DNA of 64,000 nt from the NCBI RefSeq assembly GCF_017348835.2, contig NZ_CP071375.1. One strand, given 5' to 3'. The notes below the pieces were generated by a model that was given only the letters and a program-made list of their open reading frames with translations, was not told the origin of the DNA and did not search any database. Shown here in pieces: positions 17,823-56,817 of the stretch (positions are counted from its first letter, which is position 1; the number at the start of each line of letters is the position of its first letter). This DNA comes from Escherichia coli. Its GTDB lineage: Bacteria > Pseudomonadota > Gammaproteobacteria > Enterobacterales > Enterobacteriaceae. The position numbers and the translations under genes are program-made.

Positions 17823-17842
17823 GAACAGAATTAACCAATAGC

Positions 17843-17923: not shown

Positions 17924-17960
17924 CCTCATTAATTTTAATGAGGAGGGTATTTCTCACCCT
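17924..17960. promoter_or_regulatory. two adjacent inverted repeats (CCTCATTAA-TT-TTAATGAGG; AGGGT-N7-ACCCT) directly upstream of the efflux operon RBS; candidate operator or promoter
   Basis: 9-bp perfect palindrome plus a second 5-bp inverted repeat within 50 nt of the MFP start. Confidence 0.35.
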
Positions 17961-17970
17961 GGAGAAAATA

Positions 17971-19092
17971 ATGAAGTATATAGCAACATCTGTAGTGGCA
18001 ATGCTGCTCTTATCTGGTTGTGATAATACGCAAAGTAACAATTCATCCCCGTCAGAAACAGAAGTCGGCGTTGTTACAGTCAAATCTCAACCGGTCTCGG
18101 TAGTCAGTGAATTAACCGGACGCACCAGTGCTGCGCTCAGTGCCGAAGTACGTCCGCAGGTTGGGGGAATTATCCAGAAACGCTTATTTAAGGAAGGTGA
18201 TCTGGTCAAGGCTGGACAGCCGCTCTACCAGATTGATGCGGCCAGTTATCAGGCTGCATGGAATGAAGCTCGGGCAGCATTACAACAAGCACAGGCACTG
18301 GTAAAAGCCGATTGCCAGAAAGCGCAGCGTTATGCCCGACTGGTGAAAGAGAACGGTGTTTCACAACAGGATGCTGATGATGCTCAGTCTACCTGTGCAC
18401 AAGATAAAGCCAGTGTAGAGGCGAAAAAAGCCGCACTGGAAACTGCGCGCATTAATCTTGACTGGACCACGGTAACCGCACCGATTTCAGGGCGCATTGG
18501 CATTTCGTCGGTAACCCCTGGCGCACTGGTGACCGCGTCGCAAGATACAGCGTTAACGACTATTCGTGGTCTGGATACAATGTATGTCGACCTCACTCGC
18601 TCCAGTGTCGATTTATTACGTCTGCGTAAACAGTCACTGGCGACCAACAGTGACACCATGAGCGTCTCACTTATTCTGGAAGATGGCACAACCTACAGCG
18701 AAAAAGGGCGTCTGGAACTCACCGAAGTCGCTGTAGATGAGTCTACCGGTTCGGTGACATTACGGGCGATTTTCCCCAATCCACAACAGCAGTTATTACC
18801 GGGAATGTTTGTTCGCGCTCGTGTCGATGAAGGCGTGATGGAAGACGCTATTCTCGCGCCGCAACAGGGCGTCACGCGCGATGCTAAAGGCAATGCAACT
18901 GCGCTGGTGGTGAATAAAGACAATAAAGTAGAGCAGCGAACGCTCGAAACGGGAGAAACATATGGTGATAAATGGCTGGTGCTAAACGGCCTGCACAACG
19001 GCGACCGACTGATTGTTGAAGGTTCTGCAAAAGTCACTTCAGGGCAGACGGTCAAGGCTGTTGAAGTTCAGGCTAATGGAGGCAACGCCTGA
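17971..19092 (+). CDS. RND efflux periplasmic adaptor (membrane fusion lipoprotein), AcrA/MexA-like (373 aa from MKYIATS start)
   Basis: lipoprotein signal with lipobox LLSGC; coiled-coil and beta-barrel MFP architecture; GGAG RBS. Confidence 0.9.
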   Translation: MKYIATSVVAMLLLSGCDNTQSNNSSPSETEVGVVTVKSQPVSVVSELTGRTSAALSAEVRPQVGGIIQKRLFKEGDLVKAGQPLYQIDAASYQAAWNEARAALQQAQALVKADCQKAQRYARLVKENGVSQQDADDAQSTCAQDKASVEAKKAALETARINLDWTTVTAPISGRIGISSVTPGALVTASQDTALTTIRGLDTMYVDLTRSSVDLLRLRKQSLATNSDTMSVSLILEDGTTYSEKGRLELTEVAVDESTGSVTLRAIFPNPQQQLLPGMFVRARVDEGVMEDAILAPQQGVTRDAKGNATALVVNKDNKVEQRTLETGETYGDKWLVLNGLHNGDRLIVEGSAKVTSGQTVKAVEVQANGGNA

Positions 19093-22000
19093 TGTTTTCG
19101 CGCTTTTTTGTTCGCCGCCCGGTCTTTGCCTGGGTTATCGCCATTTTGATTATGTTGGCGGGGATTCTGGCTATTCGCACATTGCCCGTCGCGCAATATC
19201 CTGACGTTGCGCCACCGACCATTAAAATTTCAGCCACTTATACTGGTGCTTCTGCCGAAACGCTGGAGAACAGCGTGACTCAGGTTATCGAGCAACAACT
19301 CACTGGGCTTGATAATTTACTCTATTTCAGCTCAACCAGCAGCTCTGATGGTTCGGTCAGTATTAATGTGACCTTTGAACAAGGTACCGATCCAGATACT
19401 GCACAGGTTCAGGTGCAGAATAAAATTCAGCAGGCCGAGTCGCGCCTACCCAGCGAAGTGCAGCAAACGGGTGTTACGGTGGAGAAATCACAAAGCAACT
19501 TTTTGCTGATTGCTGCCGTGTATGACACCACTGACAAAGCCTCCAGTTCGGATATCGCCGACTGGTTGGTTAGTAACGTTCAGGACCCGCTGGCGCGTGT
19601 TGAAGGTGTGGGGAGTCTGCAAGTCTTTGGCGCGGAATACGCTATGCGCATCTGGCTTGACCCGGCCAAACTGGCGTCTTATTCGCTAATGCCTTCAGAC
19701 GTGCAAAGTGCTATTGAAGCGCAAAACGTGCAGGTTACTGCCGGGAAAATAGGGGCATTGCCTTCACCGAATACTCAGCAACTGACCGCAACGGTACGTG
19801 CGCAGTCTCGCTTGCAGACGGTGGATCAGTTCAAAAATATTATCGTGAAAAGCCAGTCAGACGGCGCAGTTGTTCGTATAAAAGATGTGGCTCGTGTTGA
19901 GATGGGCAGTGAAGATTATACCGCTATCGGCAAACTTAACGGTCACCCGTCTGCCGGGGTTGCTGTAATGCTTTCGCCCGGTGCGAATGCGCTGAATACG
20001 GCGACGCTGGTCAAGGATAAGATTGCCGAATTCCAGCGGAACATGCCGCAGGGATACGACATCGCTTACCCGAAAGACAGCACTGAATTTATTAAAATCT
20101 CTGTAGAGGACGTAATTCAGACGCTGTTTGAAGCCATCGTATTGGTGGTTTGCGTGATGTATTTATTCCTGCAAAACCTGCGTGCCACACTGATTCCGGC
20201 GTTAGCTGTCCCCGTCGTTTTGCTGGGCACATTCGGCGTTCTTGCGTTGTTTGGCTATTCGATTAATACCCTGACGTTGTTTGCAATGGTGCTGGCGATC
20301 GGCTTGCTGGTGGACGATGCCATTGTGGTAGTGGAGAACGTCGAACGCATTATGCGTGACGAAGGGTTGCCCGCGCGTGAAGCCACGGAAAAATCAATGG
20401 GCGAGATTTCTGGCGCACTGGTTGCCATTGCGCTGGTGTTGTCAGCCGTATTCCTGCCTATGGCCTTCTTTGGGGGATCTACGGGGGTAATTTATCGTCA
20501 GTTTTCGATAACCATTATCTCCGCAATGCTGCTTTCCGTGGTGGTGGCATTGACCTTGACTCCCGCCCTGTGCGGTTCCGTCCTCCAGCATGTTCCGCCA
20601 CATAAAAAAGGCTTTTTCGGCGCATTTAACCGCTTTTACCGCCGTACTGAAGATAAATATCAGCGAGGCGTAATTTATGTCCTGCGCCGTGCTGCTCGAA
20701 CGATGGGGCTTTATCTCGTACTGGGTGGTGGAATGGCCCTGATGATGTGGAAACTGCCGGGCAGTTTCTTACCCACTGAAGACCAGGGCGAAATCATGGT
20801 GCAGTACACGCTGCCGGCCGGGGCGACCGCTGCCCGTACAGCAGAAGTGAATCGCCAGATTGTTGACTGGTTCCTGATTAACGAGAAAGCAAATACCGAT
20901 GTCATTTTTACCGTTGATGGTTTCAGTTTTAGCGGCAGCGGACAGAACACCGGGATGGCGTTTGTTTCGTTGAAAAACTGGTCTCAACGTAAAGGGGCAG
21001 AAAACACCGCCCAGGCTATCGCCCTACGGGCAACCAAAGAGCTGGGCACAATTCGTGATGCCACGGTATTTGCGATGACGCCGCCAGCCGTTGATGGGCT
21101 GGGGCAAAGCAATGGTTTTACGTTTGAATTGTTAGCTAACGGTGGAACCGATCGCGAAACACTACTGCAAATGCGTAATCAGTTGATAGAAAAAGCGAAT
21201 CAAAGTCCGGAGTTACATTCTGTTCGTGCCAATGATTTGCCACAAATGCCGCAATTGCAGGTAGATATTGATAGTAATAAAGCGGTGTCATTAGGGTTGA
21301 GTTTGAATGATGTCACCGACACCCTGTCCAGTGCGTGGGGCGGTACTTATGTGAATGACTTTATTGACCGTGGTCGTGTGAAAAAAGTCTACATTCAGGG
21401 CGACAGTGAATTTCGTTCCGCGCCGTCAGACTTAGGTAAATGGTTTGTGCGCGGTAGCGATAACGCCATGACACCATTCTCTGCTTTTGCGACCACCCGC
21501 TGGCTGTATGGACCGGAAAGACTGGTGCGCTACAACGGTTCTGCAGCCTATGAAATTCAGGGGGAAAATGCGACTGGCTTTAGTTCCGGCGATGCAATGA
21601 CAAAAATGGAGGAACTGGCAAACAGTCTTCCTGCGGGAACAACCTGGGCCTGGAGTGGTTTGTCATTGCAGGAGAAACTGGCCAGCGGTCAGGCATTGAG
21701 TCTGTATGCAGTTTCTATTCTGGTGGTTTTCCTCTGCCTTGCAGCACTGTACGAAAGCTGGTCAGTCCCGTTCTCGGTCATTCTGGTGATCCCTCTGGGG
21801 CTTCTTGGCGCGGCGCTGGCGGCCTGGATGCGTGATTTAAACAACGATGTTTACTTCCAGGTGGCGCTATTAACCACTATCGGCTTGTCGTCGAAAAACG
21901 CCATTCTGATTGTGGAATTTGCTGAAGCGGCGGTTGCAGAGGGCTATTCCTTGAGTCGTGCGGCATTACGCGCGGCGCAGACTCGTTTACGCCCAATCAT

Positions 22001-22199
22001 TATGACCTCGCTGGCGTTTATTGCGGGGGTAATGCCGCTGGCGATAGCAACCGGCGCAGGGGCGAACAGCCGCATCGCCATTGGTACGGGCATTATTGGC
22101 GGTACGCTGACCGCTACGTTGCTGGCTATTTTCTTTGTTCCTCTGTTTTTTGTACTGGTGAAACGTTTGTTTGCCGGTAAACCGCGCCGTCAGGAGTAA
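19092..22199 (+). CDS. RND (HAE1 family) inner-membrane multidrug efflux pump, AcrB/MexB-like (1035 aa)
   Basis: 12-TM RND architecture, characteristic N-terminus (MFSRFFVRRPVFAWVIAILIML); start overlaps MFP stop (ATGA). Confidence 0.93.
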   Translation: MFSRFFVRRPVFAWVIAILIMLAGILAIRTLPVAQYPDVAPPTIKISATYTGASAETLENSVTQVIEQQLTGLDNLLYFSSTSSSDGSVSINVTFEQGTDPDTAQVQVQNKIQQAESRLPSEVQQTGVTVEKSQSNFLLIAAVYDTTDKASSSDIADWLVSNVQDPLARVEGVGSLQVFGAEYAMRIWLDPAKLASYSLMPSDVQSAIEAQNVQVTAGKIGALPSPNTQQLTATVRAQSRLQTVDQFKNIIVKSQSDGAVVRIKDVARVEMGSEDYTAIGKLNGHPSAGVAVMLSPGANALNTATLVKDKIAEFQRNMPQGYDIAYPKDSTEFIKISVEDVIQTLFEAIVLVVCVMYLFLQNLRATLIPALAVPVVLLGTFGVLALFGYSINTLTLFAMVLAIGLLVDDAIVVVENVERIMRDEGLPAREATEKSMGEISGALVAIALVLSAVFLPMAFFGGSTGVIYRQFSITIISAMLLSVVVALTLTPALCGSVLQHVPPHKKGFFGAFNRFYRRTEDKYQRGVIYVLRRAARTMGLYLVLGGGMALMMWKLPGSFLPTEDQGEIMVQYTLPAGATAARTAEVNRQIVDWFLINEKANTDVIFTVDGFSFSGSGQNTGMAFVSLKNWSQRKGAENTAQAIALRATKELGTIRDATVFAMTPPAVDGLGQSNGFTFELLANGGTDRETLLQMRNQLIEKANQSPELHSVRANDLPQMPQLQVDIDSNKAVSLGLSLNDVTDTLSSAWGGTYVNDFIDRGRVKKVYIQGDSEFRSAPSDLGKWFVRGSDNAMTPFSAFATTRWLYGPERLVRYNGSAAYEIQGENATGFSSGDAMTKMEELANSLPAGTTWAWSGLSLQEKLASGQALSLYAVSILVVFLCLAALYESWSVPFSVILVIPLGLLGAALAAWMRDLNNDVYFQVALLTTIGLSSKNAILIVEFAEAAVAEGYSLSRAALRAAQTRLRPIIMTSLAFIAGVMPLAIATGAGANSRIAIGTGIIGGTLTATLLAIFFVPLFFVLVKRLFAGKPRRQE

Positions 22200-22202
22200 G
22201 TT

Positions 22203-23576
22203 ATGTTGCGTCGTTCTCTTATTTTTCTGGTGCTGTTGAGTGCGGGATGTGTCTCGCTCGATCCCCACTACAGCACGCCTGAATCCCCAATCCCGGCGAC
22301 CTTGCCGGGAGCACAGGGCCAGGGAAAGGCAATCAGCCATGACTGGCAGCAGGTGATCCACGATCCCCGATTGCAGCAAGTGGTGACTATTGCACTGAAC
22401 AGTAACCGCGATGTGCAAAAAGCGATTGCTGATATTGACTCAGCACGGGCGCTCTATGGGCAAACTAATGCGTCGTTATTCCCGACGGTGAATGCGGCCT
22501 TAAGTTCAACCCGCAGTCGTTCGCTGGCGAATGGTACGGAAACCACTGCCGAGGCTGACGGCACGGTGTCCAGTTTTACGTTAGATCTGTTTGGTCGTAA
22601 TCAGAGTTTATCTCGGGCGGCGCGAGAAACCTGGCTTGCCAGTGAATTTACAGCCCAGAACACCCGTTTAACGCTGATTGCTGAAATCAGCACCGCCTGG
22701 CTGACACTGGCGGCCGATAACAGCAACCTGGCCCTGGCAAAAGAAACGATGACCAGTGCAGAAAACTCATTGAAAATTATCCAGCGCCAGCAACAGGTTG
22801 GCACGGCGGCAGCGACAGATGTCAGTGAGGCGATGAGTGTTTATCAGCAAGCGCGCGCCAGCGTTGCCAGCTATCAGACACAAGTGATGCAGGATAAAAA
22901 TGCGCTGAACTTACTGGCAGGTACAACGCTTGAGGAAAATTTGCTACCGGGAACACTGGAAAGCCTGCCGGAACAGATGATAAGTCTGGTTCCTGCGGGA
23001 GTGTCATCTGACGTTCTGCTGCGTCGCCCGGATATCCAGGAAGCGGAACATAATTTGAAGAGCGCCAATGCCGATATTGGCGCGGCGCGGGCTAACTTTT
23101 TCCCGACGATTTCGCTGACTGCCAGCGCTGGTGTTGGCAGTGACGCATTGTCGTCGTTGTTCAGCCACGGAATGCAGATCTGGTCATTTACGCCATCGGT
23201 CACATTACCGCTGTTCACTGGCGGAAGTAATCTGGCGCAGCTTCGTTACGCAGAAGCACAAAAGCGTGGACTCATTGCCACCTATGAAAAAACCGTTCAG
23301 AGCGCATTTAAAGATGTCGCTAACGCACTGGCGCGGCGGACCACGCTTGAAGAGCAACTGGATGCACAGCGCCAGTATGTTAAAGCTGAGCAACAAACGG
23401 TCGATGTTGGCTTGCGTCGCTATCAGACGGGTGTTGGTGATTACCTGACCGTGTTGACGGCGCAGCGCAGCTTGTGGAGCGCACAGCAGGAGCTGCTGGC
23501 ACTGCAACTGACTGATTTTACAAACCGAATCACGCTCTGGCAGTCGCTGGGCGGCGGCATGTCATCACTCAAGTAA
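22203..23576 (+). CDS. outer-membrane efflux lipoprotein, OprM/NodT-family OMF (457 aa)
   Basis: lipobox LSAGC; OMF family repeats; 3 nt after RND stop. Confidence 0.9.
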   Translation: MLRRSLIFLVLLSAGCVSLDPHYSTPESPIPATLPGAQGQGKAISHDWQQVIHDPRLQQVVTIALNSNRDVQKAIADIDSARALYGQTNASLFPTVNAALSSTRSRSLANGTETTAEADGTVSSFTLDLFGRNQSLSRAARETWLASEFTAQNTRLTLIAEISTAWLTLAADNSNLALAKETMTSAENSLKIIQRQQQVGTAAATDVSEAMSVYQQARASVASYQTQVMQDKNALNLLAGTTLEENLLPGTLESLPEQMISLVPAGVSSDVLLRRPDIQEAEHNLKSANADIGAARANFFPTISLTASAGVGSDALSSLFSHGMQIWSFTPSVTLPLFTGGSNLAQLRYAEAQKRGLIATYEKTVQSAFKDVANALARRTTLEEQLDAQRQYVKAEQQTVDVGLRRYQTGVGDYLTVLTAQRSLWSAQQELLALQLTDFTNRITLWQSLGGGMSSLK

Positions 23577-23584
23577 GGAATAAT

Positions 23585-24748
23585 ATGGCTAGAGTCTCTC
23601 TTTCATGGGCATTGATTCTTGGTCTTTTAGCCGGTATCGGCCCGATGTGTACCGATCTTTATTTGCCGGCTTTGCCGGAGATGTCTGAGCAACTGGCGGC
23701 AACCACGACCATAACGCAATTAACGCTGACTGCATCACTGATCGGTCTTGGCGTCGGACAACTGTTATTTGGCCCTCTGAGCGACAAAATAGGGCGTAAA
23801 CGTCCGTTAATCTTGTCGTTGCTATTGTTTATTGTTTCTTCCATTTTGTGCGCGACAACGAACAATATTTACTGGCTGGTGATCTGGCGTTTTATTCAAG
23901 GGATCGCGGGGGCGGGTGGTTCGGTGCTCTCTCGTTCTATTGCTCGTGACAAATATCAGGGAGTAACGTTGACCCAGTTTTTTGCGCTGTTAATGACGGT
24001 GAATGGCCTGGCACCGGTGTTGTCGCCAGTGCTGGGCGGGTACATTGTTAGCACTTTTGACTGGCGCACTTTATTCTGGGTAATGGCTGAAATTAGCACC
24101 GTATTGTTGCTGGGCTGCGTGTTATTTATTAATGAGACCTTGCCAGAAAATAAAAGGGGCTCATCATTGCTATTAACCGGACGAAGCGTGGTGCAGAACC
24201 GCCGTTTTATGCGCTTTTGCCTGATTCAAAGTTTTATGCTGGCAGGTTTGTTTGCGTATATCGGCTCTTCGTCGTTCGTGTTGCAGAAGGAATTTGGCTT
24301 TAGTCCAATGCAATTTAGCCTGGTGTTTGGCCTTAACGGCATCGGACTTATCATTGCTTCATGGATCTTTTCGCGTCTGGCGCGACGGATTAATGCGATG
24401 ACATTGTTGCGAGGTGGCCTGATAGCGGCAATTTTGTGTGCATTGCTCACGGTCTTATGCGCATGGACACAATTGCCCATTCCGGCACTGGTGGCATTAT
24501 TTTTCACTATTGCATTTTGTAGCGGCATCGGCACTGTTGGCGGGGCAGAGGCTATGAGTGCAGTAGGGACGCAGGAATCTGGAACGGCGTCTGCGTTGAT
24601 GGGGATGAGCATGTTTGTCTTCGGCGGTATAGCCGCGCCATTGTCGGGATTTGGCGGAGAAACACTGTTAAAAATGAGTCTGGCAATTACGGTGTGTTAT
24701 ACACTGGCATTCCTGGTTGCTCTCACCAGAATCGACAATCAAAAGTAA
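23585..24748 (+). CDS. MFS transporter, Bcr/CflA drug-resistance subfamily (387 aa)
   Basis: 12-TM MFS with motif GPLSDKIGRKRP; AAGGA RBS; 8 nt after OMF stop. Confidence 0.88.
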   Translation: MARVSLSWALILGLLAGIGPMCTDLYLPALPEMSEQLAATTTITQLTLTASLIGLGVGQLLFGPLSDKIGRKRPLILSLLLFIVSSILCATTNNIYWLVIWRFIQGIAGAGGSVLSRSIARDKYQGVTLTQFFALLMTVNGLAPVLSPVLGGYIVSTFDWRTLFWVMAEISTVLLLGCVLFINETLPENKRGSSLLLTGRSVVQNRRFMRFCLIQSFMLAGLFAYIGSSSFVLQKEFGFSPMQFSLVFGLNGIGLIIASWIFSRLARRINAMTLLRGGLIAAILCALLTVLCAWTQLPIPALVALFFTIAFCSGIGTVGGAEAMSAVGTQESGTASALMGMSMFVFGGIAAPLSGFGGETLLKMSLAITVCYTLAFLVALTRIDNQK

Positions 24749-42860: not shown

Positions 42861-42876
42861 AAGAATTCACCATGAG

Positions 42877-42899
42877 CGGCGCTTATGCGCCGTTTTTTT
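42877..42899 (+). terminator. rho-independent terminator after pspE (CGGCGC-TTAT-GCGCCG + TTTTTTT)
   Basis: GC stem with tetraloop followed by a 7-T tract. Confidence 0.7.
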
Positions 42900-43070
42900 C
42901 TGTCACACCTTATTTACATCCCCATAGATTATTTGCGTCAGCTCACAAATACGCTTTTTCCCTGGTGAAAAATGATTTCCTGCGTGACTAAAACCCTTGT
43001 GCTCAATTGACAGTTTATTTTCTGCGGAGTAGTCTCTCGTTTCATGGGACCGCTACCACGGAAAGGCAAC

Positions 43071-44750
43071 ATGAAACAGAAAATTACGGATTACCTGGAC
43101 GAAATCTACGGTGGAACATTTACCGCAACTCATTTACAGAAACTTGTAACGCGTCTTGAGAGTGCGAAACGATTAATTACACAGCGACGTAAAAAACACT
43201 GGGATGAAAGTGACGTCGTGTTAATTACCTATGCCGATCAATTTCACAGTAATGATTTAAAACCACTACCCATATTTAATCAGTTCTACCATCAATGGCT
43301 GCAAAGCATTTTTTCACATGTTCATTTATTACCTTTTTACCCATGGTCATCTGATGATGGATTTTCGGTAATTGATTATCATCAGGTCTCCAGTGAAGCG
43401 GGGGAGTGGCAGGATATTCAGCAGCTCGGTGAATGCAGTCATTTAATGTTTGATTTTGTCTGCAACCATATGTCGGCAAAAAGTGAATGGTTTAAAAACT
43501 ATTTGCAACAGCTTCCGGGTTTTGAAGATTTCTTTATTGCGGTTGATCCGAAAACCGATCTCAGTGCCGTCACCCGTCCGCGTGCGTTACCGCTATTAAC
43601 GCCGTTTCAAATGGATGATAATTCCACGCGCCATTTATGGACCACCTTTAGCGACGATCAAATTGACCTCAATTACCGTAGCCCTGAAGTGTTGCTGGCG
43701 ATGGTGGATGTATTGCTGTGCTACCTGGAAAAGGGCGCAGAATATGTCCGTCTGGATGCCGTTGGCTTTATGTGGAAAGAGCCGGGAACAAGCTGCATCC
43801 ATCTGGAAAAAACACATCTGATTATCAAACTGTTACGGTCGATTATTGATGACATCGCGCCAGGTACGGTGATTATTACTGAGACGAATGTTCCGCATAA
43901 AGATAACATTGCTTACTTTGGCGAAGGCGATGACGAAGCGCATATGGTGTACCAGTTCTCGCTGCCGCCGCTGGTGTTACATGCGGTGCAAAAACAGAAC
44001 GTCGAGGCGCTGTGCCAGTGGGCGCAAAGTCTGAGCTTGCCCTCCGGTAAAACGACCTGGTTTAACTTCCTCGCCTCTCACGATGGCATCGGGCTGAACC
44101 CACTGCGGGGCTTGTTACCAGAAAGCGAAATATTAGCGCTGGTCGAGGCATTACAGCAGGAAGGTGCATTAGTAAACTGGAAAAATAATCCCGACGGTAC
44201 GCGCAGTCCCTATGAAATAAATGTCACCTATATGGATGCGTTAAGCCGCCGCGAGAGTAGCGATGAAGAACGTTGCGCCAGGTTTATCCTTGCCCATGCG
44301 ATTTTGTTAAGTTTCCCCGGTGTGCCAGCGATATATATTCAAAGTATTCTGGGCTCGCGTAATGATTACGCAGGTGTCGAAAAACTCGGATATAACCGTG
44401 CGATTAACCGTAAAAAATATCACAGTGAAGAGATAACACGAGAACTGAACGATGAAGCTACATTAAGGCATGCGGTATATCATGAGTTGTCGCGTTTAAT
44501 TACACTTCGTCGCAGCCATAACGAGTTTCATCCGGATAATAATTTTACCATCGATACGGTTAATTCATCCGTAATGCGTATTCAAAGAAGTAACGCTGAT
44601 GGTAATTGTCTGACTGGATTGTTTAATGTCAGTAAAAATATTCAGCATGTAAATATTACTGATCTGCATGGTCGGGATCTGATTAGTGAAGTTGATATAT
44701 TGGGTAATGAAATAACGCTGCGCCCCTGGCAGGTTATGTGGATTAAATAA
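43071..44750 (+). CDS. ycjM: GH13-family sucrose-phosphorylase-like glycoside phosphorylase YcjM (559 aa from MKQKITDY start)
   Basis: GH13_18-like sequence; first gene of ycjM-V cluster. Confidence 0.9.
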   Translation: MKQKITDYLDEIYGGTFTATHLQKLVTRLESAKRLITQRRKKHWDESDVVLITYADQFHSNDLKPLPIFNQFYHQWLQSIFSHVHLLPFYPWSSDDGFSVIDYHQVSSEAGEWQDIQQLGECSHLMFDFVCNHMSAKSEWFKNYLQQLPGFEDFFIAVDPKTDLSAVTRPRALPLLTPFQMDDNSTRHLWTTFSDDQIDLNYRSPEVLLAMVDVLLCYLEKGAEYVRLDAVGFMWKEPGTSCIHLEKTHLIIKLLRSIIDDIAPGTVIITETNVPHKDNIAYFGEGDDEAHMVYQFSLPPLVLHAVQKQNVEALCQWAQSLSLPSGKTTWFNFLASHDGIGLNPLRGLLPESEILALVEALQQEGALVNWKNNPDGTRSPYEINVTYMDALSRRESSDEERCARFILAHAILLSFPGVPAIYIQSILGSRNDYAGVEKLGYNRAINRKKYHSEEITRELNDEATLRHAVYHELSRLITLRRSHNEFHPDNNFTIDTVNSSVMRIQRSNADGNCLTGLFNVSKNIQHVNITDLHGRDLISEVDILGNEITLRPWQVMWIK

Positions 44751-44763: not shown

Positions 44764-46056
44764 ATGATTAAATCAAAAATCGTGCTGTTATCAGCACTGG
44801 TTTCCTGCGCCCTGATTTCAGGCTGTAAAGAAGAAAATAAAACCCATGTATCCATCGAATTTATGCATTCTTCGGTGGAGCAGGAGCGTCAGGCAGTTAT
44901 CAGTAAATTGATTGCCCGTTTTGAAAAAGAAAACCCGGGCATCACCGTTAAACAAGTGCCAGTGGAAGAAGATGCCTATAACACCAAAGTCATCACCCTT
45001 TCACGTAGCGGCTCGCTGCCGGAAGTGATCGAAACCAGCCATGACTACGCCAAAGTTATGGACAAAGAGCAGCTTATCGATCGTAAAGCGGTTGCCACGG
45101 TCATCAGCAACGTTGGTGAAGGCGCGTTTTACGATGGCGTACTGCGTATTGTGCGCACCGAAGATGGGAGTGCCTGGACCGGTGTTCCTGTCAGCGCCTG
45201 GATTGGCGGCATCTGGTATCGCAAAGATGTGCTGGCAAAAGCCGGGCTGGAGGAGCCGAAAAACTGGCAGCAGCTGCTGGACGTTGCACAGAAACTGAAT
45301 GACCCGGCGAATAAAAAATACGGTATTGCGCTGCCTACAGCAGAAAGCGTGTTGACGGAACAATCCTTCTCCCAGTTTGCGTTATCCAACCAGGCCAACG
45401 TCTTTAACTCTGAAGGCAAAATCACCCTTGATACACCAGAGATGATGCAGGCGCTGACTTATTACCGCGACCTTGCCGCCAACACCATGCCGGGTTCTAA
45501 CGATATCATGGAAGTGAAAGACGCCTTTATGAACGGCACCGCGCCGATGGCGATTTACTCCACCTATATCCTTCCGGCTGTAATTAAAGAAGGCGACCCG
45601 AAAAACGTCGGTTTCGTGGTGCCAACCGAGAAAAACTCTGCGGTCTACGGCATGTTGACCTCGCTGACTATTACCGCCGGGCAAAAGACCGAAGAGACGG
45701 AAGCGGCGGAAAAATTTGTCACCTTTATGGAACAGGCGGACAACATTGCCGACTGGGTGATGATGTCGCCAGGCGCGGCGCTGCCAGTGAACAAAGCGGT
45801 GGTGACTACCGCCACCTGGAAAGACAACGACGTTATTAAGGCGCTGGGTGAACTACCGAATCAGCTAATCGGTGAACTGCCTAATATTCAGGTCTTTGGC
45901 GCAGTAGGGGATAAAAACTTTACCCGCATGGGCGATGTGACGGGTTCTGGTGTGGTGAGCTCCATGGTGCATAACGTCACCGTGGGTAAAGCCGATCTCC
46001 CTGGCACGCTACAAGCGAGCCAGAAAAAGTTGGATGAACTGATCGAACAGCACTAA
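44764..46056 (+). CDS. ycjN: ABC sugar transporter periplasmic binding protein YcjN (430 aa)
   Basis: signal peptide with lipobox-like LISGC; family 1 SBP. Confidence 0.9.
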   Translation: MIKSKIVLLSALVSCALISGCKEENKTHVSIEFMHSSVEQERQAVISKLIARFEKENPGITVKQVPVEEDAYNTKVITLSRSGSLPEVIETSHDYAKVMDKEQLIDRKAVATVISNVGEGAFYDGVLRIVRTEDGSAWTGVPVSAWIGGIWYRKDVLAKAGLEEPKNWQQLLDVAQKLNDPANKKYGIALPTAESVLTEQSFSQFALSNQANVFNSEGKITLDTPEMMQALTYYRDLAANTMPGSNDIMEVKDAFMNGTAPMAIYSTYILPAVIKEGDPKNVGFVVPTEKNSAVYGMLTSLTITAGQKTEETEAAEKFVTFMEQADNIADWVMMSPGAALPVNKAVVTTATWKDNDVIKALGELPNQLIGELPNIQVFGAVGDKNFTRMGDVTGSGVVSSMVHNVTVGKADLPGTLQASQKKLDELIEQH

Positions 46057-46076
46057 ACCCAGGACAGGAATCCGCA

Positions 46077-46958
46077 ATGAACAGGCTTTTTTCAGGTCGT
46101 TCCGATATGCCGTTTGCGCTGCTGCTTCTCGCGCCCAGCTTATTACTGCTGGGCGGTCTGGTGGCGTGGCCGATGGTGTCGAATATCGAAATCAGTTTTT
46201 TACGTCTGCCGCTCAATCCCAACATCGAGTCAACGTTTGTTGGGGTGAGTAACTATGTGCGCATTCTCTCCGATCCCGGCTTCTGGCACTCGCTGTGGAT
46301 GACGGTCTGGTATACGGCGCTGGTGGTGGCGGGCAGCACCGTGCTCGGGCTGGCCGTGGCGATGTTTTTCAACCGCGAGTTCCGCCTGCGCAAAACCGCG
46401 CGTTCGCTGGTGATCCTCTCCTACGTAACGCCGTCCATTTCGCTGGTGTTTGCCTGGAAATACATGTTCAACAACGGCTACGGCATTGTGAACTACCTCG
46501 GCGTCGATCTTCTGCATCTCTATGAGCAGGCACCGCTGTGGTTCGATAATCCGGGCAGTAGCTTTGTGCTGGTGGTGCTGTTCGCCATCTGGCGCTACTT
46601 CCCGTATGCCTTTATCTCGTTTCTGGCGATTTTGCAGACCATCGACAAATCGCTGTACGAAGCGGCAGAGATGGATGGCGCTAATGCCTGGCAGCGGTTT
46701 CGCATCGTCACGCTGCCCGCAATTATGCCGGTCCTGGCGACGGTGGTGACTCTGCGCACCATCTGGATGTTTTACATGTTCGCTGATGTTTATCTGCTGA
46801 CAACCAAGGTCGATATTCTCGGTGTCTATCTCTACAAAACCGCCTTTGCCTTTAATGACTTAGGGAAAGCGGCGGCGATCTCGGTGGTGCTCTTCATCAT
46901 TATTTTCGCTGTCATTCTGCTGACCAGGAAACGGGTGAACCTCAATGGCAACAAATAA
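46077..46958 (+). CDS. ycjO: ABC sugar transporter permease YcjO (293 aa)
   Basis: MalF/G-type permease with EAA loop. Confidence 0.9.
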   Translation: MNRLFSGRSDMPFALLLLAPSLLLLGGLVAWPMVSNIEISFLRLPLNPNIESTFVGVSNYVRILSDPGFWHSLWMTVWYTALVVAGSTVLGLAVAMFFNREFRLRKTARSLVILSYVTPSISLVFAWKYMFNNGYGIVNYLGVDLLHLYEQAPLWFDNPGSSFVLVVLFAIWRYFPYAFISFLAILQTIDKSLYEAAEMDGANAWQRFRIVTLPAIMPVLATVVTLRTIWMFYMFADVYLLTTKVDILGVYLYKTAFAFNDLGKAAAISVVLFIIIFAVILLTRKRVNLNGNK

Positions 46959-47787
46959 ACGCACACTCAGTCGTATCGGATTTTACTGCGGGCTGGCGCT
47001 GTTTCTCATCATCACGCTGTTTCCGTTTTTTGTGATGCTGATGACCTCGTTCAAGAGCGCAAAAGAGGCGATCTCGCTGCATCCTACGCTGCTGCCGCAA
47101 CAGTGGACGCTGGAGCATTACGTCGACATTTTTAACCCGGTGATATTCCCGTTTGTCGACTATTTCCGTAACAGCATGGTGGTGTCGGTAGTTTCATCCG
47201 TGGTGGCGGTATTTCTCGGCATTCTCGGGGCTTACGCGCTTTCCCGCCTGCGCTTTAAAGGGCGGATGACCATCAACGCCAGCTTTTACACGGTATACAT
47301 GTTCTCCGGCATTTTGCTGGTGGTGCCGCTGTTCAAAATCATCACCGCGCTTGGCATTTACGACACCGAGATGGCGCTGATCATTACCATGGTGACGCAA
47401 ACCCTGCCCACCGCCGTGTTTATGCTGAAAAGCTACTTCGACACCATCCCTGATGAGATCGAAGAAGCGGCGATGATGGATGGCCTCAACCGTCTGCAAA
47501 TTATCTTCCGTATCACCGTGCCCCTGGCGATGTCCGGGCTGATATCGGTGTTCGTCTACTGCTTTATGGTGGCGTGGAACGACTATCTGTTTGCGTCGAT
47601 TTTCCTCTCCAGCGCCAGCAATTTCACCTTACCAGTGGGCCTGAACGCGCTGTTCAGTACGCCTGATTACATCTGGGGACGCATGATGGCGGCCTCGCTG
47701 GTGACCGCATTGCCGGTGGTGATTATGTATGCGCTTTCGGAACGTTTTATTAAGAGTGGTTTGACCGCCGGTGGCGTGAAGGGCTAA
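46945..47787 (+). CDS. ycjP: ABC sugar transporter permease YcjP (280 aa)
   Basis: permease with EAA motif (EEAAMMDG); overlaps ycjO. Confidence 0.9.
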   Translation: MATNKRTLSRIGFYCGLALFLIITLFPFFVMLMTSFKSAKEAISLHPTLLPQQWTLEHYVDIFNPVIFPFVDYFRNSMVVSVVSSVVAVFLGILGAYALSRLRFKGRMTINASFYTVYMFSGILLVVPLFKIITALGIYDTEMALIITMVTQTLPTAVFMLKSYFDTIPDEIEEAAMMDGLNRLQIIFRITVPLAMSGLISVFVYCFMVAWNDYLFASIFLSSASNFTLPVGLNALFSTPDYIWGRMMAASLVTALPVVIMYALSERFIKSGLTAGGVKG

Positions 47788-47817: not shown

Positions 47818-48813
47818 ATGAAAAAGTTAGTAGCCACGGCACCGCGCGTAGCGGCGCTGGTTGAGTATGAAGACAGGGCGATTTTAGCCAATGAAGTGAA
47901 GATCCGCGTGCGTTTCGGCGCGCCGAAGCACGGGACGGAAGTGGTCGATTTCCGCGCCGCCAGCCCGTTTATCGATGAAGACTTTAACGGTGAATGGCAG
48001 ATGTTCACCCCGCGCCCGGCAGATGCGCCGCGCGGCATTGAGTTTGGCAAATTCCAGCTTGGCAACATGGTGGTTGGCGACATTATCGAATGCGGCAGCG
48101 CCGTTACCGATTACGCGGTGGGCGACAGCGTATGCGGCTACGGCCCGCTTTCCGAAACGGTCATCATTAACGCGGTGAATAACTACAAGCTGCGCAAAAT
48201 GCCGAAAGGCAGTTCGTGGAAAAACGCCGTCTGCTACGACCCGGCGCAGTTTGCCATGAGCGGCGTGCGCGATGCCAACGTGCGCGTAGGGGATTTTGTG
48301 GTGGTGGTAGGGCTTGGCGCGATTGGTCAAATTGCCATCCAACTGGCGAAACGCGCTGGCGCGTCTGTGGTGATTGGCGTCGATCCTATCGCCCATCGCT
48401 GTGATATTGCCCGTCGCCACGGCGCGGATTTCTGCCTTAACCCCATCGGCACTGACGTAGGGAAAGAGATCAAAACGCTGACCGGCAAGCAGGGTGCCGA
48501 TGTGATTATCGAAACCAGCGGCTACGCCGACGCGCTGCAATCGGCACTGCGCGGCCTGGCTTACGGCGGCACCATCTCCTATGTCGCGTTTGCCAAACCG
48601 TTTGCCGAAGGTTTCAACCTCGGACGCGAAGCGCATTTCAATAACGCCAAAATTGTCTTCTCCCGCGCGTGCAGCGAACCGAACCCGGATTATCCGCGCT
48701 GGAGCCGTAAGCGTATTGAAGAAACCTGCTGGGAACTGCTGATGAACGGTTATCTCAATTGTGAAGATTTAATCGACCCGGTGGTGACCTTTGCTAACAG
48801 CCCGGAAAGCTAA
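47818..48813 (+). CDS. ycjQ: zinc-dependent MDR-family dehydrogenase YcjQ (331 aa as read here)
   Basis: AAGGAG RBS; Rossmann motif VVVGLGAIGQ; I remember K-12 listing a longer product, so the start is uncertain. Confidence 0.85.
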   Translation: MKKLVATAPRVAALVEYEDRAILANEVKIRVRFGAPKHGTEVVDFRAASPFIDEDFNGEWQMFTPRPADAPRGIEFGKFQLGNMVVGDIIECGSAVTDYAVGDSVCGYGPLSETVIINAVNNYKLRKMPKGSSWKNAVCYDPAQFAMSGVRDANVRVGDFVVVVGLGAIGQIAIQLAKRAGASVVIGVDPIAHRCDIARRHGADFCLNPIGTDVGKEIKTLTGKQGADVIIETSGYADALQSALRGLAYGGTISYVAFAKPFAEGFNLGREAHFNNAKIVFSRACSEPNPDYPRWSRKRIEETCWELLMNGYLNCEDLIDPVVTFANSPES

Positions 48814-48888
48814 ATGCAGTACGTTGACCAGCATCCGGAACAGAGCATCAAAATGGGCGTTACGTTTTAATTCAAAGGAATGAAAAAA

Positions 48889-49677
48889 ATGAAAATCGGC
48901 ACACAGAATCAGGCGTTCTTTCCGGAAAACATTCTAGAGAAATTTCGTTATATCAAAGAGATGGGCTTCGATGGTTTTGAAATCGACGGCAAACTGCTGG
49001 TCAACAACATCGAAGAAGTGAAAGCGGCGATCAAAGAAACTGGTTTACCGGTGACCACCGCCTGCGGTGGCTATAACGGCTGGATTGGCGACTTTATCGA
49101 AGAGCGTCGTCTTAATGGCTTAAAGCAGATAGAGCGCATTCTCGAAGCGCTGGCAGAAGTGGGCGGTAAAGGTATCGTCGTTCCGGCAGCGTGGGGCATG
49201 TTTACCTTCCGCTTACCGCCGATGACTTCACCGCGCAGCCTGGACGGCGACCGTAAAATGGTGAGCGATTCCCTGCGCGTACTGGAACAGGTAGCCGCGC
49301 GTACCGGAACCGTGGTGTATCTCGAACCGTTAAACCGTTATCAGGATCACATGATCAACACCCTCGCCGATGCCCGCCGTTACATCGTCGAAAACGATCT
49401 TAAACATGTGCAGATTATCGGCGATTTCTATCACATGAATATCGAAGAAGATAACCTGGCGCAGGCGCTGCATGACAACCGCGACCTGCTCGGTCATGTG
49501 CATATTGCCGATAACCATCGTTATCAGCCGGGCAGCGGCACCCTGGATTTCCACGCGCTGTTTGAACAACTGCGCGCCGATAATTATCAGGGCTATGTGG
49601 TGTATGAAGGGCGCATTCGGGCAGAAGATCCTGCCCAGGCGTACCGTGATTCTTTGGCCTGGTTGCGTACCTGCTAA
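48889..49677 (+). CDS. ycjR: sugar-phosphate isomerase/epimerase (TIM barrel) YcjR (262 aa from MKIGTQ start)
   Basis: xylose-isomerase-like TIM barrel sequence. Confidence 0.88.
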   Translation: MKIGTQNQAFFPENILEKFRYIKEMGFDGFEIDGKLLVNNIEEVKAAIKETGLPVTTACGGYNGWIGDFIEERRLNGLKQIERILEALAEVGGKGIVVPAAWGMFTFRLPPMTSPRSLDGDRKMVSDSLRVLEQVAARTGTVVYLEPLNRYQDHMINTLADARRYIVENDLKHVQIIGDFYHMNIEEDNLAQALHDNRDLLGHVHIADNHRYQPGSGTLDFHALFEQLRADNYQGYVVYEGRIRAEDPAQAYRDSLAWLRTC

Positions 49678-49686
49678 GAGGTCTTT

Positions 49687-50742
49687 GTGAAAAGTGCAAT
49701 GACAAGCTCTCCGCTGCGGGTCGCGATCATAGGCGCGGGCCAGGTGGCGGATAAAGTTCATGCTTCGTACTACTGCACCCGCAACGATCTGGAACTGGTG
49801 GCTGTCTGTGACAGCCGCCTTTCCCAGGCGCAGGCGCTGGCAGATAAATACGGTAATGCATCCGTGTGGGACGATCCGCAGGCCATGCTGCTGGCGGTGA
49901 AACCTGACGTGGTTAGCGTCTGCTCACCTAACCGTTTTCATTACGAACATACCCTGATGGCACTGGAAGCGGGCTGCCATGTGATGTGCGAAAAACCGCC
50001 CGCCATGACGCCAGAACAGGCGCGGGAAATGTGCGATATCGCGCGCAAACAGGGCAAGGTGCTGGCCTACGACTTTCACCATCGTTTTGCGCTCGATACG
50101 CAACAGCTGCGTGAACAGGTGACCAACGGCGTTTTGGGAGAGATTTACGTTACCACCGCCCGCGCCCTGCGTCGCTGCGGCGTTCCCGGCTGGGGTGTCT
50201 TTACCAATAAAGAACTGCAGGGTGGTGGCCCGCTGATCGACATCGGCATTCATATGCTGGATGCTGCAATGTATGTGCTGGGCTTTCCGGCGGTGAAAAG
50301 CGTGAATGCGCATAGTTTTCAAAAGATCGGCACGCAAAAGAGCTGTGGTCAATTTGGCGAGTGGGATCCGGCAACTTACAGCGTCGAAGATTCGCTGTTT
50401 GGCACCATTGAATTTCATAACGGCGGCATTCTGTGGCTGGAAACGTCATTTGCACTCAACATCCGCGAACAGTCGATTATGAACGTCAGCTTTTGCGGTG
50501 ATAAAGCCGGTGCGACGCTGTTTCCAGCACATATCTACACCGATAACAACGGTGAATTAATGACGCTGATGCAACGGGAAATGGCAGACGACAACCGCCA
50601 TTTGCGCAGCATGGAAGCCTTTATCAATCACGTACAGGGCAAGCCCGTGATGATAGCCGATGCCGAGCAGGGGTACATCATCCAGCAACTGGTGGCGGCG
50701 TTGTATCAATCCGCAGAAACAGGGACGCGTGTGGAATTATGA
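49687..50742 (+). CDS. ycjS: Gfo/Idh/MocA-family NAD(P)-dependent oxidoreductase YcjS (351 aa), GTG start
   Basis: N-terminal Rossmann fold (RVAIIGAGQVA). Confidence 0.88.
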   Translation: MKSAMTSSPLRVAIIGAGQVADKVHASYYCTRNDLELVAVCDSRLSQAQALADKYGNASVWDDPQAMLLAVKPDVVSVCSPNRFHYEHTLMALEAGCHVMCEKPPAMTPEQAREMCDIARKQGKVLAYDFHHRFALDTQQLREQVTNGVLGEIYVTTARALRRCGVPGWGVFTNKELQGGGPLIDIGIHMLDAAMYVLGFPAVKSVNAHSFQKIGTQKSCGQFGEWDPATYSVEDSLFGTIEFHNGGILWLETSFALNIREQSIMNVSFCGDKAGATLFPAHIYTDNNGELMTLMQREMADDNRHLRSMEAFINHVQGKPVMIADAEQGYIIQQLVAALYQSAETGTRVEL

Positions 50743-53006
50743 CCAGGCCAGTAACGTTATCAGAACCCCATTTCAGCCAGCATACCCTGAACAAGTATGC
50801 ATCACTGATGGCGCAGGGGAACGGCTATCTTGGGCTTCGCGCCAGCCATGAAGAAGATTACACGCGCCAGACGCGCGGCATGTATCTGGCGGGGCTGTAT
50901 CATCGGGCGGGTAAAGGTGAAATCAACGAACTGGTGAACCTGCCCGATGTGGTGGGGATGGAGATTGCCATAAATGGTGAGGTTTTCTCATTATCCCGCG
51001 AAGCCTGGCAGCGTGAGCTTGACTTTGCCAGTGGCGAATTACGCCGCAGCGTTGTCTGGCGTACCAGCAACGGCACAGGTTACACCATCGCCAGCCGTCG
51101 CTTTGTTTCGGCAGACCAACTGCCGCTCATTGCGCTGGAAATCACTATTACTCCACTGGACGCCGACGCGTCAGTGCTGATTTCAACAGGCATTGACGCC
51201 ACGCAAACCAATCACGGTCGCCAACATTTCGACGAAACCCAGGTGCGGGTGTTTGGTCAGCATCTGATGCAGGGGATCTACACCACCCAGGATGGACGCA
51301 GTGATGTGGCCATCAGCTGTTGCTGTAAGGTGAGCGGTGATGTGCAGCAATGCTATACCGCCAAAGAGCGCCGTTTGCTGCAACATACCAGCGCGCAACT
51401 TCACGCAGGCGAAACGCTGACGCTGCAAAAACTGGTGTGGATCGACTGGCGGGATGACAGGCAAGCTGCTTTAGACGAGTGGGGCAGTGCGTCGCTTCGC
51501 CAGCTTGAAATGTGTGCGCAGCAGAGTTACGACCAACTTCTTGCAGCATCAACAGAAAACTGGCGTCAGTGGTGGCAGAAACGTCGTATCACGGTAAACG
51601 GCGGCGATGCGCACGATCAGCAAGCGTTAGATTATGCGCTTTATCATCTGCGCATCATGACGCCTGCTCACGACGAGCGCAGCAGTATTGCGGCAAAAGG
51701 CTTAACCGGAGAAGGCTACAAAGGCCACGTTTTCTGGGATACAGAAGTATTTTTGCTACCGTTTCATCTGTTTAGCGATCCGACGGTTGCCCGAAGTTTA
51801 CTGCGTTATCGCTGGCACAACTTGCCAGGCGCGCAGGAGAAAGCGCGACGCAACGGCTGGCAGGGCGCGCTATTTCCGTGGGAGAGCGCACGCAGTGGTG
51901 AAGAAGAGACGCCGGAATTTGCCGCCATTAACATTCGCACCGGGCTGCGGCAAAAAGTGGCCTCGGCGCAGGCTGAACATCATCTGGTCGCCGATATCGC
52001 CTGGGCGGTTATTCAATACTGGCAGACAACGGGGGATGAAAGTTTCATTGCTCATGAAGGCATAGCGCTACTTCTGGAGAGCGCAAAGTTCTGGATTAGC
52101 CGCGCGGTAAGGGTTAACGACCGTCTGGAAATTCATGATGTTATTGGGCCAGACGAATATACCGAACATGTCAATAATAACGCCTTCACCAGCTATATGG
52201 CGTATTACAACGTCCAGCAGGCGCTGAACATCGCTCGTCAATTTGGCTGTAGCGACGTTGCGTTTATCCATCGCGCCGAAATGTTCCTCAAAGAGTTGTG
52301 GCTGCCAGAAACTCAGCCCGACGGCGTTTTGCCGCAGGATGATTCGTTTATGGCTAAGCCGGCGATTAATCTGGCGAAATACAAAGCGGCGGCGGGGAAG
52401 CAAACCATTCTGCTGGATTATTCACGCGCAGAAGTGAACGAGATGCAGATCCTCAAACAAGCTGATGTGGTGATGCTCAATTACATGCTGCCGGAGCAGT
52501 TCTCAGCGGCATCGTGTCTTGCCAATCTGCAATTTTATGAACCGCGCACTATTCACGACTCGTCATTAAGTAAAGCAATCCACGGCATTGTTGCCGCACG
52601 CTGTGGCCTGCTGACCCAAAGTTATCAGTTCTGGCGCGAGGGGACTGAAATCGATCTTGGTGCTGATCCGCATAGTTGTGATGATGGTATCCATGCTGCC
52701 GCAACTGGCGCTATCTGGCTGGGGGCGATTCAGGGTTTTGCCGGGGTGAGCGTGCGTGACGGTGAATTGCATCTAAATCCGGCGTTACCTGAGCAGTGGC
52801 AACAGTTGTCTTTCCCTCTGTTCTGGCAGGGCTGCGAATTACAGGTCACGCTCGACGCGCAGCGTATTGCGATTCGAACTTCTGCGCCCGTTTCACTGCG
52901 TTTGAACGGCCAGCTTATATCCGTGGCTGAAAAATCTGTTTTCTGTTTGGGTGATTATATTTTGCCCTTCAATGGGACCGCTACCACGCATCAGGAGGAT
53001 GAATGA
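50739..53006 (+). CDS. ycjT: GH65-family glycoside phosphorylase (kojibiose phosphorylase-like) YcjT (755 aa)
   Basis: GH65 sequence; overlaps ycjS and ycjU by 4 nt. Confidence 0.9.
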
Positions 53007-53662
53007 AACTGCAAGGGGTAATTTTCGATCTGGATGGTGTAATCACCGATACCGCGCATCTGCATTTCCAGGCGTGGCAGCAGATTGCCGCTGAAATTGG
53101 CATCAGCATTGATGCGCAGTTTAACGAATCCCTAAAAGGGATTAGCCGCGATGAGTCTCTGCGGCGCATTCTGCAATACGGGGGCAAAGAGGGCGACTTT
53201 AACTCGCAGGAGCGGGCGCAACTGGCGTATCGCAAAAATCTGCTCTACGTCCACTCACTGCGCGAACTGACGGTTAATGCCGTTCTGCCGGGGATCCGGC
53301 CTTTGCTGGCAGATCTCCGCGCACAGCAGATCCCGGTAGGGCTGGCTTCCGTCTCCCTGAATGCGCCGACGATTTTAGCGGCGCTGGAGCTGCGCGAGTT
53401 TTTCACCTTCTGCGCGGATGCTTCCCAACTTAAAAACTCGAAACCGGATCCGGAAATCTTTCTCGCTGCTTGTGCCGGGCTGGGCGTGCCGCCGCAGGCA
53501 TGTATCGGCATTGAAGATGCGCAGGCGGGCATTGACGCCATTAACGCCAGCGGTATGCGCTCGGTGGGGATCGGCGCGGGCTTAACCGGGGCGCAATTAC
53601 TATTGCCTTCAACGGACTCCCTGACCTGGTCGCGGTTATCGGCCTTCTGGCAAAACGTATAG
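53003..53662 (+). CDS. ycjU: beta-phosphoglucomutase YcjU (219 aa), HAD superfamily
   Basis: HAD motif I DLDGVITD. Confidence 0.92.
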
Positions 53663-53675
53663 CAAAGGAATCAAC

Positions 53676-54758
53676 ATGGCTCAGCTTTCGTTACAACATA
53701 TTCAAAAAATCTACGATAACCAGGTGCATGTGGTGAAGGACTTCAACCTGGAAATTGCCGATAAAGAGTTCATCGTATTTGTCGGCCCGTCGGGCTGCGG
53801 TAAATCGACCACCCTGCGCATGATTGCCGGGCTTGAGGAGATCAGCGGCGGCGATCTGTTGATCGACGGCAAACGAATGAATGACGTTCCAGCCAAAGCA
53901 CGCAATATCGCGATGGTGTTCCAGAACTACGCGTTGTATCCGCATATGACGGTCTACGACAACATGGCGTTTGGCCTGAAGATGCAAAAAATCGCCAAAG
54001 AGGTGATTGATGAGCGGGTGAACTGGGCGGCGCAAATTCTCGGCCTGCGTGAGTACCTGAAACGCAAGCCGGGCGCGCTTTCCGGCGGGCAACGCCAGCG
54101 TGTGGCGCTCGGGCGGGCGATTGTGCGCGAAGCGGGCGTGTTTTTAATGGATGAACCGCTCTCTAACCTTGATGCCAAGCTGCGCGTACAAATGCGCGCA
54201 GAGATCAGCAAGCTGCATCAGAAACTGAACACCACCATGATCTACGTGACCCACGATCAGACCGAAGCGATGACCATGGCGACGCGGATTGTGATTATGA
54301 AAGACGGGATTGTTCAGCAAGTGGGTGCGCCGAAAACCGTTTATAACCAACCCGCGAATATGTTTGTTGCCGGATTTATTGGATCACCAGCGATGAATTT
54401 TATTCGCGGCACGATCGATGGCGATAAATTCGTTACGGAAACGCTTAAATTAACCATTCCCGAAGAGAAATTAGCGGTTCTGAAAACACAGGAAAGTTTG
54501 CATAAGCCCATCGTGATGGGAATACGCCCGGAAGATATTCATCCGGACGCGCAAGAGGAAAATAACATTTCCGCCAAAATTAGCGTGGCAGAATTAACCG
54601 GTGCGGAATTTATGCTCTACACCACGGTTGGGGGGCACGAGTTAGTGGTCCGTGCTGGTGCGTTAAATGATTATCATGCAGGAGAAAATATCACCATTCA
54701 TTTTGATATGACGAAATGTCATTTCTTTGATGCAGAAACGGAAATAGCAATTCGCTAA
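53676..54758 (+). CDS. ycjV: ABC sugar transporter ATP-binding protein YcjV, MalK-like, intact 360 aa
   Basis: Walker A GPSGCGKST, signature LSGGQRQR, C-terminal TOBE-like domain; reading frame uninterrupted. Confidence 0.9.
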   Translation: MAQLSLQHIQKIYDNQVHVVKDFNLEIADKEFIVFVGPSGCGKSTTLRMIAGLEEISGGDLLIDGKRMNDVPAKARNIAMVFQNYALYPHMTVYDNMAFGLKMQKIAKEVIDERVNWAAQILGLREYLKRKPGALSGGQRQRVALGRAIVREAGVFLMDEPLSNLDAKLRVQMRAEISKLHQKLNTTMIYVTHDQTEAMTMATRIVIMKDGIVQQVGAPKTVYNQPANMFVAGFIGSPAMNFIRGTIDGDKFVTETLKLTIPEEKLAVLKTQESLHKPIVMGIRPEDIHPDAQEENNISAKISVAELTGAEFMLYTTVGGHELVVRAGALNDYHAGENITIHFDMTKCHFFDAETEIAIR

Positions 54759-55818: not shown

Positions 55819-56817
55819 TTATTTCAGCGTCATATGCGTGGCAACGGTAATATTCTGTGGTGACGGTTTTCCAGAAATTAAGCGGAATAATAACTCGCAG
55901 CTTTGTTGACCTAACTCCTGCGTCGGAACATCGATGCCGCCCGGTGCAGGCGTTAAAATAAATGACAGCGTTTCATTGCTATAACCCACCACCGCTAACT
56001 GCTGCGGAATAGCAATATTTTTCTCTGCTGCCGCACGATAAATGCTCATTAATTTCAGGCTGTCAGTGGCAAACACCGCCTCAGGCAACGGTGACTGGCT
56101 TAATAATTCTCTCGCGGCTTGCAGTGCTGTTTCATGGGTATAACCGCCGTCAACAATCCATTCATCACGCACTGCAATATTATGCGCGGACAGACTTTGC
56201 TTATAACCATTTACCCGATCCACTGAAACATGGACATCAAGCGGTGCATGAAGGCAGGCAATGTTTTTATGTCCATTCTCAATTAATGCATCGGTTAGCG
56301 CAATGCTGTCACCAAAATTATCGGTATCGACAGAATAAACATGGGCATATTGACCTTCAACTTTGCCAATCACCACGACAGGAATATCGTATTTATCAAG
56401 TTGGGCAAAAAATGACTCATCCGCTGGCGAACTTAGCATAATAATGCCTTTAATCATTTTCTGCTTAATTGTGCTTTCACATTTTTGTAAGTCTTCTGCC
56501 AGGTTGTGCGACGTTTGTAATATCACGTCGAAACCTTCTTCTTCCGCTTTGGCGGTGATGGCATGTAGAACTTCTGAGAAAAACGGATTACCCGCCGTAG
56601 TTTTGGTCGAACGGGTAGAAATCACCATAATGGCATCAAAACCCGAAGAGGTCAGCGCGCGGGCCAGCTTGTTTGGCTGATACTGTAATTCTTCAATGGC
56701 CCGTAACACTTTTTCGCGCGCTTCCGGGGAGATATTGGTTTGCTTATTCAGCACGCGTGATACGGTGGATTTTGATACGCCTGCAACCCTGGCAATATCA
56801 TAAATAGTAGGGGACAT
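55819..56817 (-). CDS. ycjW: LacI-family transcriptional regulator YcjW (332 aa)
   Basis: N-terminal LacI HTH ([20 protein letters not shown]). Confidence 0.92.

Follow-up and report, generated by a model that had tools for sequence, protein, structure and literature searches.

An intact ycjV reading frame in the Escherichia coli ycj locus, the single-base deletion in its K-12 allele, and a private nonsense allele of ycjQ

The stretch of DNA analysed here (the window) comprises 64,000 nucleotides of E. coli contig NZ_CP071375.1 (assembly GCF_017348835.2) and carries the ycjM-V/ompG locus together with the repressor gene ycjW. The genes and sites are listed below in window coordinates.

43045..43058, no strand assigned: candidate YcjW operator 1, a 14-bp imperfect palindrome TGGGACCGCTACCA with CG at its centre, separated from the ycjM ATG by 12 nt
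43071..44750, + strand: ycjM, glucosylglycerate phosphorylase, full length, 20 amino acid substitutions relative to K-12
44764..46056, + strand: ycjN, substrate-binding lipoprotein, full length by K-12 comparison and PE164 annotation
46077..46958, + strand: ycjO, permease, protein identical to that of K-12
46945..47787, + strand: ycjP, permease, full length in the gene-by-gene comparison with K-12
47818..48813, + strand: ycjQ, D-guloside 3-dehydrogenase, 331 aa because of a nonsense codon at 48811-48813 (TAT>TAA, Y332*); native stop position 48868-48870
48889..49677, + strand: ycjR, 3-dehydro-D-guloside 4-epimerase, full length
49687..50742, + strand: ycjS, D-glucoside 3-dehydrogenase, full length
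50739..53006, + strand: ycjT, kojibiose phosphorylase, full length, 18 amino acid substitutions relative to K-12
52973..52986, no strand assigned: candidate YcjW operator 2, the second TGGGACCGCTACCA copy, at the ycjT 3' end just before the ycjU ATG
53003..53662, + strand: ycjU/pgmB, beta-phosphoglucomutase, full length
53665..53669, + strand: Shine-Dalgarno AAGGA of ycjV, read from the sequence, 6 nt 5' of the ycjV ATG and directly after the ycjU stop
53676..54758, + strand: ycjV, intact 360-aa MalK/UgpC/MsmX-type ABC transporter ATP-binding subunit, WP_000057972.1
54630..54635, + strand: G6 homopolymer in codons V318-G319-G320-H321 of ycjV, G5 in K-12 by alignment with NC_000913.3
54803..55708, + strand: ompG, monomeric outer-membrane porin, full length
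55819..56817, - strand: ycjW, LacI-family repressor of the operon (function from PMC6599011), full length

We found that ycjV is a single ATG-initiated open reading frame of 360 codons with zero internal stops in its translation. The nucleotide-binding domain (NBD) matches the Pfam family ABC_tran (PF00005) over residues 21-162 with 110.5 bits (cut-off 25), and the C-terminus matches OB_MalK (PF17912, residues 236-288) and TOBE_2 (PF08402, residues 282-351), both above their gathering scores, so that the regulatory domain is complete. All the NBD motifs expected of a CUT1/MalK-UgpC-MsmX-type ATPase are present, including Walker A (GPSGCGKS, 37-44), the Q-loop (Q83), the signature (LSGGQ, 135-139), Walker B with the catalytic Glu (VFLMDE, 155-160), the D-loop (SNLD, 163-166), and the H-loop (H193). 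The initial annotation, which had described an intact 360-aa ATPase with Walker A/B, signature motif and C-terminal regulatory domain, is thus borne out by the reading frame, the Pfam matches and the motifs. A purified intact E. coli YcjV of a closely related allele (WP_000057985.1) hydrolyses ATP (PMC7658222).

YcjV shares its family and domain organisation with E. coli MalK (PDB 1q12, 2r6g) and UgpC. It passes the NCBIfam model of the UgpC subfamily with 485 bits (cut-off 432); against the MalK equivalog NF008233 it reaches 431.2 bits, below the cut-off of 568, and we therefore regard it as a MalK paralogue rather than MalK itself. Its presumed partners, YcjN, YcjO and YcjP, also differ from those of MalK: the binding protein and the two permeases are encoded at 44764-47787 in the same operon, and all three are full length. 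The best match in the PDB is Bacillus subtilis MsmX (6yir), which has the same arrangement of NBD and regulatory domain and to which residues 1-360 of YcjV align end to end (E = 1.2e-148). In the frame set by the G6 run, the last 40 residues of YcjV, the final twelve included, align with MsmX right up to the end, at MsmX residue 365 (...HFFDAETEIAIR in YcjV, ...HFFDSETEVRIR in MsmX), which identifies the G6 frame as the conserved one. Conserved gene order (ycjU-ycjV-ompG-ycjW) and a nucleotide sequence closely matching the K-12 locus establish the gene as the orthologue of K-12 ycjV.

The initial annotation had described the K-12 gene as disrupted and had proposed an alignment to locate the lesion. 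Both ycjV (b1318) and ymjB (b4524) are indeed annotated as pseudogenes in NC_000913.3, and in another MG1655 record PGAP labels ycjV as 'frameshifted'. The pairwise alignment of the window gene with NC_000913.3 (98.4% nucleotide identity) revealed 16 substitutions and one indel; 15 of the 16 substitutions fall at third codon positions and the remaining one is A232S. The indel is the lesion, a -1 frameshift that turns GGGGGG at 54630-54635 into GGGGG. The native frame of K-12 YcjV is lost after Gly320, and translation stops at 322 aa (…TTVGGTS*), so that residues 321-360 (40 residues), more than half of the TOBE_2 match, are missing. The pseudogene ymjB corresponds to the last 37 codons of ycjV, surviving in another frame. 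The K-12 ycjV'/ymjB' pair occupies the same operon slot between ycjU and ompG as the orthologous window gene and differs from it in carrying G5 instead of G6, in the 322-aa product without residues 321-360, and in having Ser instead of Ala at position 232. The MalK-type C-terminal domain holds the NBD dimer together, and from this role we infer that the 322-aa product of K-12 would be non-functional.

We considered whether A232S marks decay of the K-12 gene after its pseudogenisation, and rejected this. The S232 allele is a common phylogroup-A polymorphism present in 1528 genomes, including strains with an intact ycjV such as HS. Since S232 is common, and since HS, a natural relative that shares it with K-12, retains G6, the deletion of a single G is the only ycjV lesion specific to K-12.

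To count the two alleles among 5426 complete E. coli genomes, exact matches were scored to a 62-mer centred on the G6 run or to the corresponding K-12 61-mer with G5. The gene itself was found in 5001 of these genomes, with at least 80% of its length covered in 4980. The G6 62-mer matched 4408 genomes, including BL21(DE3), O157:H7 and the commensal HS, and the G5 61-mer matched 370. Among the 60 G5 matches listed, almost all are MG1655, DH5alpha, DH1, C600, J53, RR1, NCM3722 and similar laboratory derivatives; TOP10 derivatives also appear there. As judged from these sequences, an intact ycjV is both ancestral and prevalent, and K-12 is the exception. Intactness is the norm of the species rather than a trait of this strain, a point on which the initial annotation needs correcting.

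The sequence of the window is closely matched by two other assemblies. The chromosome of PE164 (NZ_CP114128.1), an E. coli isolate from a pig in Nanjing, matches positions 39001-64000 at 100.0% identity and differs from positions 1-43158 at one base. F2_81 (pig, Australia), an independent assembly, differs from the window at 3 bases over 18 kb. In the RefSeq records of both PE164 and F2_81, ycjV is a normal CDS, WP_000057972.1. The single base that separates positions 1-43158 from PE164 is at 12407, where the window has T and PE164 has A, giving Glu25 instead of Asp25 in PdeR; the window accordingly derives from a close-to-identical relative of PE164 or from another assembly version of that strain. 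Over 39001-64000, matches of at least 99% were obtained only with PE164 and F2_81, and all the other complete genomes reach at most 97.9%. The ycj region of this lineage is unusually divergent, as seen in the amino acid differences of YcjM (20) and YcjT (18) from K-12. Elsewhere in the window, between fabI and sapF (17256-24748), lies a five-gene accessory block present in 2043 of the 5426 E. coli genomes, with genes for a TetR regulator, an MFS transporter and the adaptor, permease and outer-membrane factor of an RND efflux system; K-12 presumably lacks this block.

The 15 kb of the locus is collinear with NC_000913.3, and the G-run of ycjV is the sole intragenic indel. Eleven genes of the locus, all except ycjQ, are free of stops and frameshifts relative to K-12. 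Two indels occur outside ycjV in the aligned locus; one of them is at the pspE terminator hairpin (42874-42900), where the T-tract after the hairpin is 2 nt shorter than in K-12. Both copies of TGGGACCGCTACCA are identical in K-12. In the literature, ycjMNOPQRSTUV-ompG is repressed by YcjW, which has two ChIP-seq peaks, the second 'between ycjT and ycjU', and kojibiose frees YcjW from DNA in vitro (PMC6599011). The coincidence of the TGGGACCGCTACCA copies with the two published peaks makes them candidate YcjW operators. In a consensus scan of the operon for promoters and terminators, no more sites were obtained than in shuffled sequence.

The exception among the genes is ycjQ. Codon 332 is TAA in the window and TAT in K-12, and the protein has 331 residues instead of 350. 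In Salmonella, Enterobacter, Cronobacter, Vibrio, Listeria, Bacillus and Paenibacillus, the orthologues have 349-352 aa and end in a nearly invariant tail, YMxYVDQHPELSIKMGVTF, and the 19 C-terminal residues lost here are near-invariant in 13 orthologues ranging from Enterobacteria to Listeria and Bacillus. As weak support, an AlphaFold2 model of moderate confidence (pLDDT 69 on average and 62-77 in the tail) puts the stop inside the helix 325-338, upstream of the terminal beta-strand 345-349. A PDB sequence search with YcjQ returned only distant MDR dehydrogenases, whose alignments end at about residue 260, short of the C-terminus. PGAP calls the 331-aa ycjQ an ordinary CDS in PE164 and F2_81. 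With the near-invariant tail gone, D-guloside 3-dehydrogenase function is likely to be impaired in this lineage, and the guloside branch (YcjQRS) along with it.

The ycjQ stop allele is very rare. The first query, made with the divergent flanks of the lineage itself, matched just 92 genomes, and with the stop set in the common K-12 flanks there was an exact match in none of 3703 genomes. Among the 5426 complete genomes, the exact allele occurs only in the pig isolates PE164 and F2_81, and this confinement to two genomes indicates that it is recent. The conclusion of the initial annotation that ycjM-V/ompG is a plausibly complete uptake and catabolic unit therefore stands in part: both candidate operators are conserved and every gene but the truncated ycjQ, eleven in all, is full length. 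At the sequence level, the uptake system and the two branches for kojibiose (YcjT/YcjU) and glucosylglycerate (YcjM) appear complete. As the truncation of ycjQ shows, selection on the locus is not uniformly strong in this lineage.

The G5 run is also found outside K-12. The Shiga-toxigenic (STEC) strain 2014C-3051 (NZ_CP027338.1, piece L006, positions 562-1643; genome of 5.6 Mb) carries the same G6-to-G5 frameshift of ycjV, which PGAP labels 'frameshifted', and its ycjV differs from that of K-12 at 21 other sites. This may be either a loss independent of that in K-12 or a homopolymer assembly error. G5 was also seen in strains 08-00022 and OkiPb01709, and the ycjV span of RIVM_C040348 is 1084 nt. 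A query combining the window background with G5 gave no 100% match, but the C at 54695 of the window is itself rare (about 11 genomes), which makes the query uninformative for counting separate non-K-12 deletions. The recurrence in sequence hints that the G-run may be a slippage hotspot.

We are highly confident that the ycjV of the window is the ordinary ancestral wild-type allele and that the K-12 laboratory lineage is the deviant one, through slippage in the G-run. In the proposed mechanism, a YcjV homodimer would energise a type I sugar importer composed of the binding lipoprotein YcjN and the permeases YcjO and YcjP, encoded in the YcjW-repressed operon. In K-12, slippage in the G6 homopolymer would have dropped one G, shifting the frame after Gly320 and bringing in the stop at 322; more than half of the TOBE regulatory and dimerisation domain would be lost with it, leaving a remnant annotated as ymjB. 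From these sequences, we infer that intact YcjV would drive transport through YcjNOP in this strain and that the truncation in K-12 would abolish it. Transport requires an intact ATPase but is not proven by one.

The published observations on K-12 and on YcjN bear on this mechanism in several ways. A growth failure of K-12 is reportedly described in the kojibiose phosphorylase paper of Mukherjee et al. 2018. MG1655 does not grow in kojibiose minimal medium (PMC6599011), and YcjN shows no thermal shift with kojibiose, maltose or other sugars (PMC11543891). YcjN-dependent uptake has been reported for a set of strains with 'E. coli K-12' among them (PMC13053599); if so, K-12 may retain some transport, for example through substitution by another CUT1 ATPase. 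The recent YcjN papers, including PMC13053599, name YcjV as the NBD and are silent on its break in K-12. In K-12 metabolic engineering, the 'pseudogene ycjV locus' routinely serves as a neutral integration site (PMC10380740; also PMC11731478).

An intact ycjV could arise as a sequencing or assembly artefact if an extra G had been miscalled in the homopolymer. Long-read assemblies are error-prone in such runs, a few non-K-12 assemblies have G5, and one has the 1084-nt span. Against this, PE164 has the identical G6 run, as do F2_81, which comes from another continent and was sequenced independently, and the 4408 complete genomes, and it is the G6 frame whose conservation with MsmX and MalK-type proteins extends to the final residue. 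The artefact is vanishingly improbable, and sequencing error as the source of the intact frame is effectively refuted by these comparisons. It is unlikely, though a good deal less so, that ycjV is intact within a locus that is otherwise decaying or cryptic in this lineage, in which case the ycjQ nonsense codon would reflect relaxed selection and an intact ycjV would say little about a working pathway. The deletion of the 19 near-invariant YcjQ residues fits such decay, as does the breakage of different genes in different lineages, ycjV in K-12 and STEC 2014C-3051 and ycjQ here; repression by YcjW is also tight and its natural inducer uncertain (PMC6599011). However, the remaining eleven genes have neither stops nor frameshifts, the 15 synonymous changes among the 16 ycjV substitutions relative to K-12 point to purifying selection, the ycjQ allele is recent, being confined to 2 of the 5426 genomes, and the YcjT/U and YcjM branches are independent of YcjQ.

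A related and slightly more doubtful proposal is that the G6 tract is a recurrent slippage site which has switched the Ycj importer off separately in K-12 and in STEC 2014C-3051; together with the ycjQ nonsense allele, this would make the locus conditionally dispensable, with piecemeal inactivation under way in natural as well as laboratory strains. We attach very little weight to a further reading, in which other CUT1-type importers would also draw on YcjV as a common 'multitask' ATPase, so that the integrity of YcjV would matter beyond the ycj locus. YcjV lies above the UgpC subfamily cut-off, and its nearest solved relative, MsmX, is a multitask ATPase with 64% identity (PMC7658222). Unlike MsmX, however, YcjV is encoded inside its own transporter operon, does not replace MsmX in B. 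subtilis, where it gave no complementation of an msmX null mutant, and is without the charged residues that have been put forward as a signature of multitask ATPases (PMC7658222). In addition, K-12 lives without YcjV and has no known transport defect. The reading of the window ycjV as the ancestral wild-type allele is retained.

The K-12 pseudogene and the intact ycjV allele are both already in standard annotation, and they bring no new biology. What is unexpected here is only the private nonsense allele of ycjQ, and it runs counter to the conclusion of a complete unit. The practical value of the intact ycjV is modest, and it is a useful reminder that the work on the ycj genes, covering kojibiose, glucosylglycerate and guloside catabolism and the search for YcjN ligands, has been done mostly in K-12, where the ATPase is broken. 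Physiological tests are for this reason better done with BL21, HS, a wild isolate or another strain carrying G6, or with a repaired K-12, and the truncated ycjQ makes strains like PE164 ill suited to work on the guloside branch.
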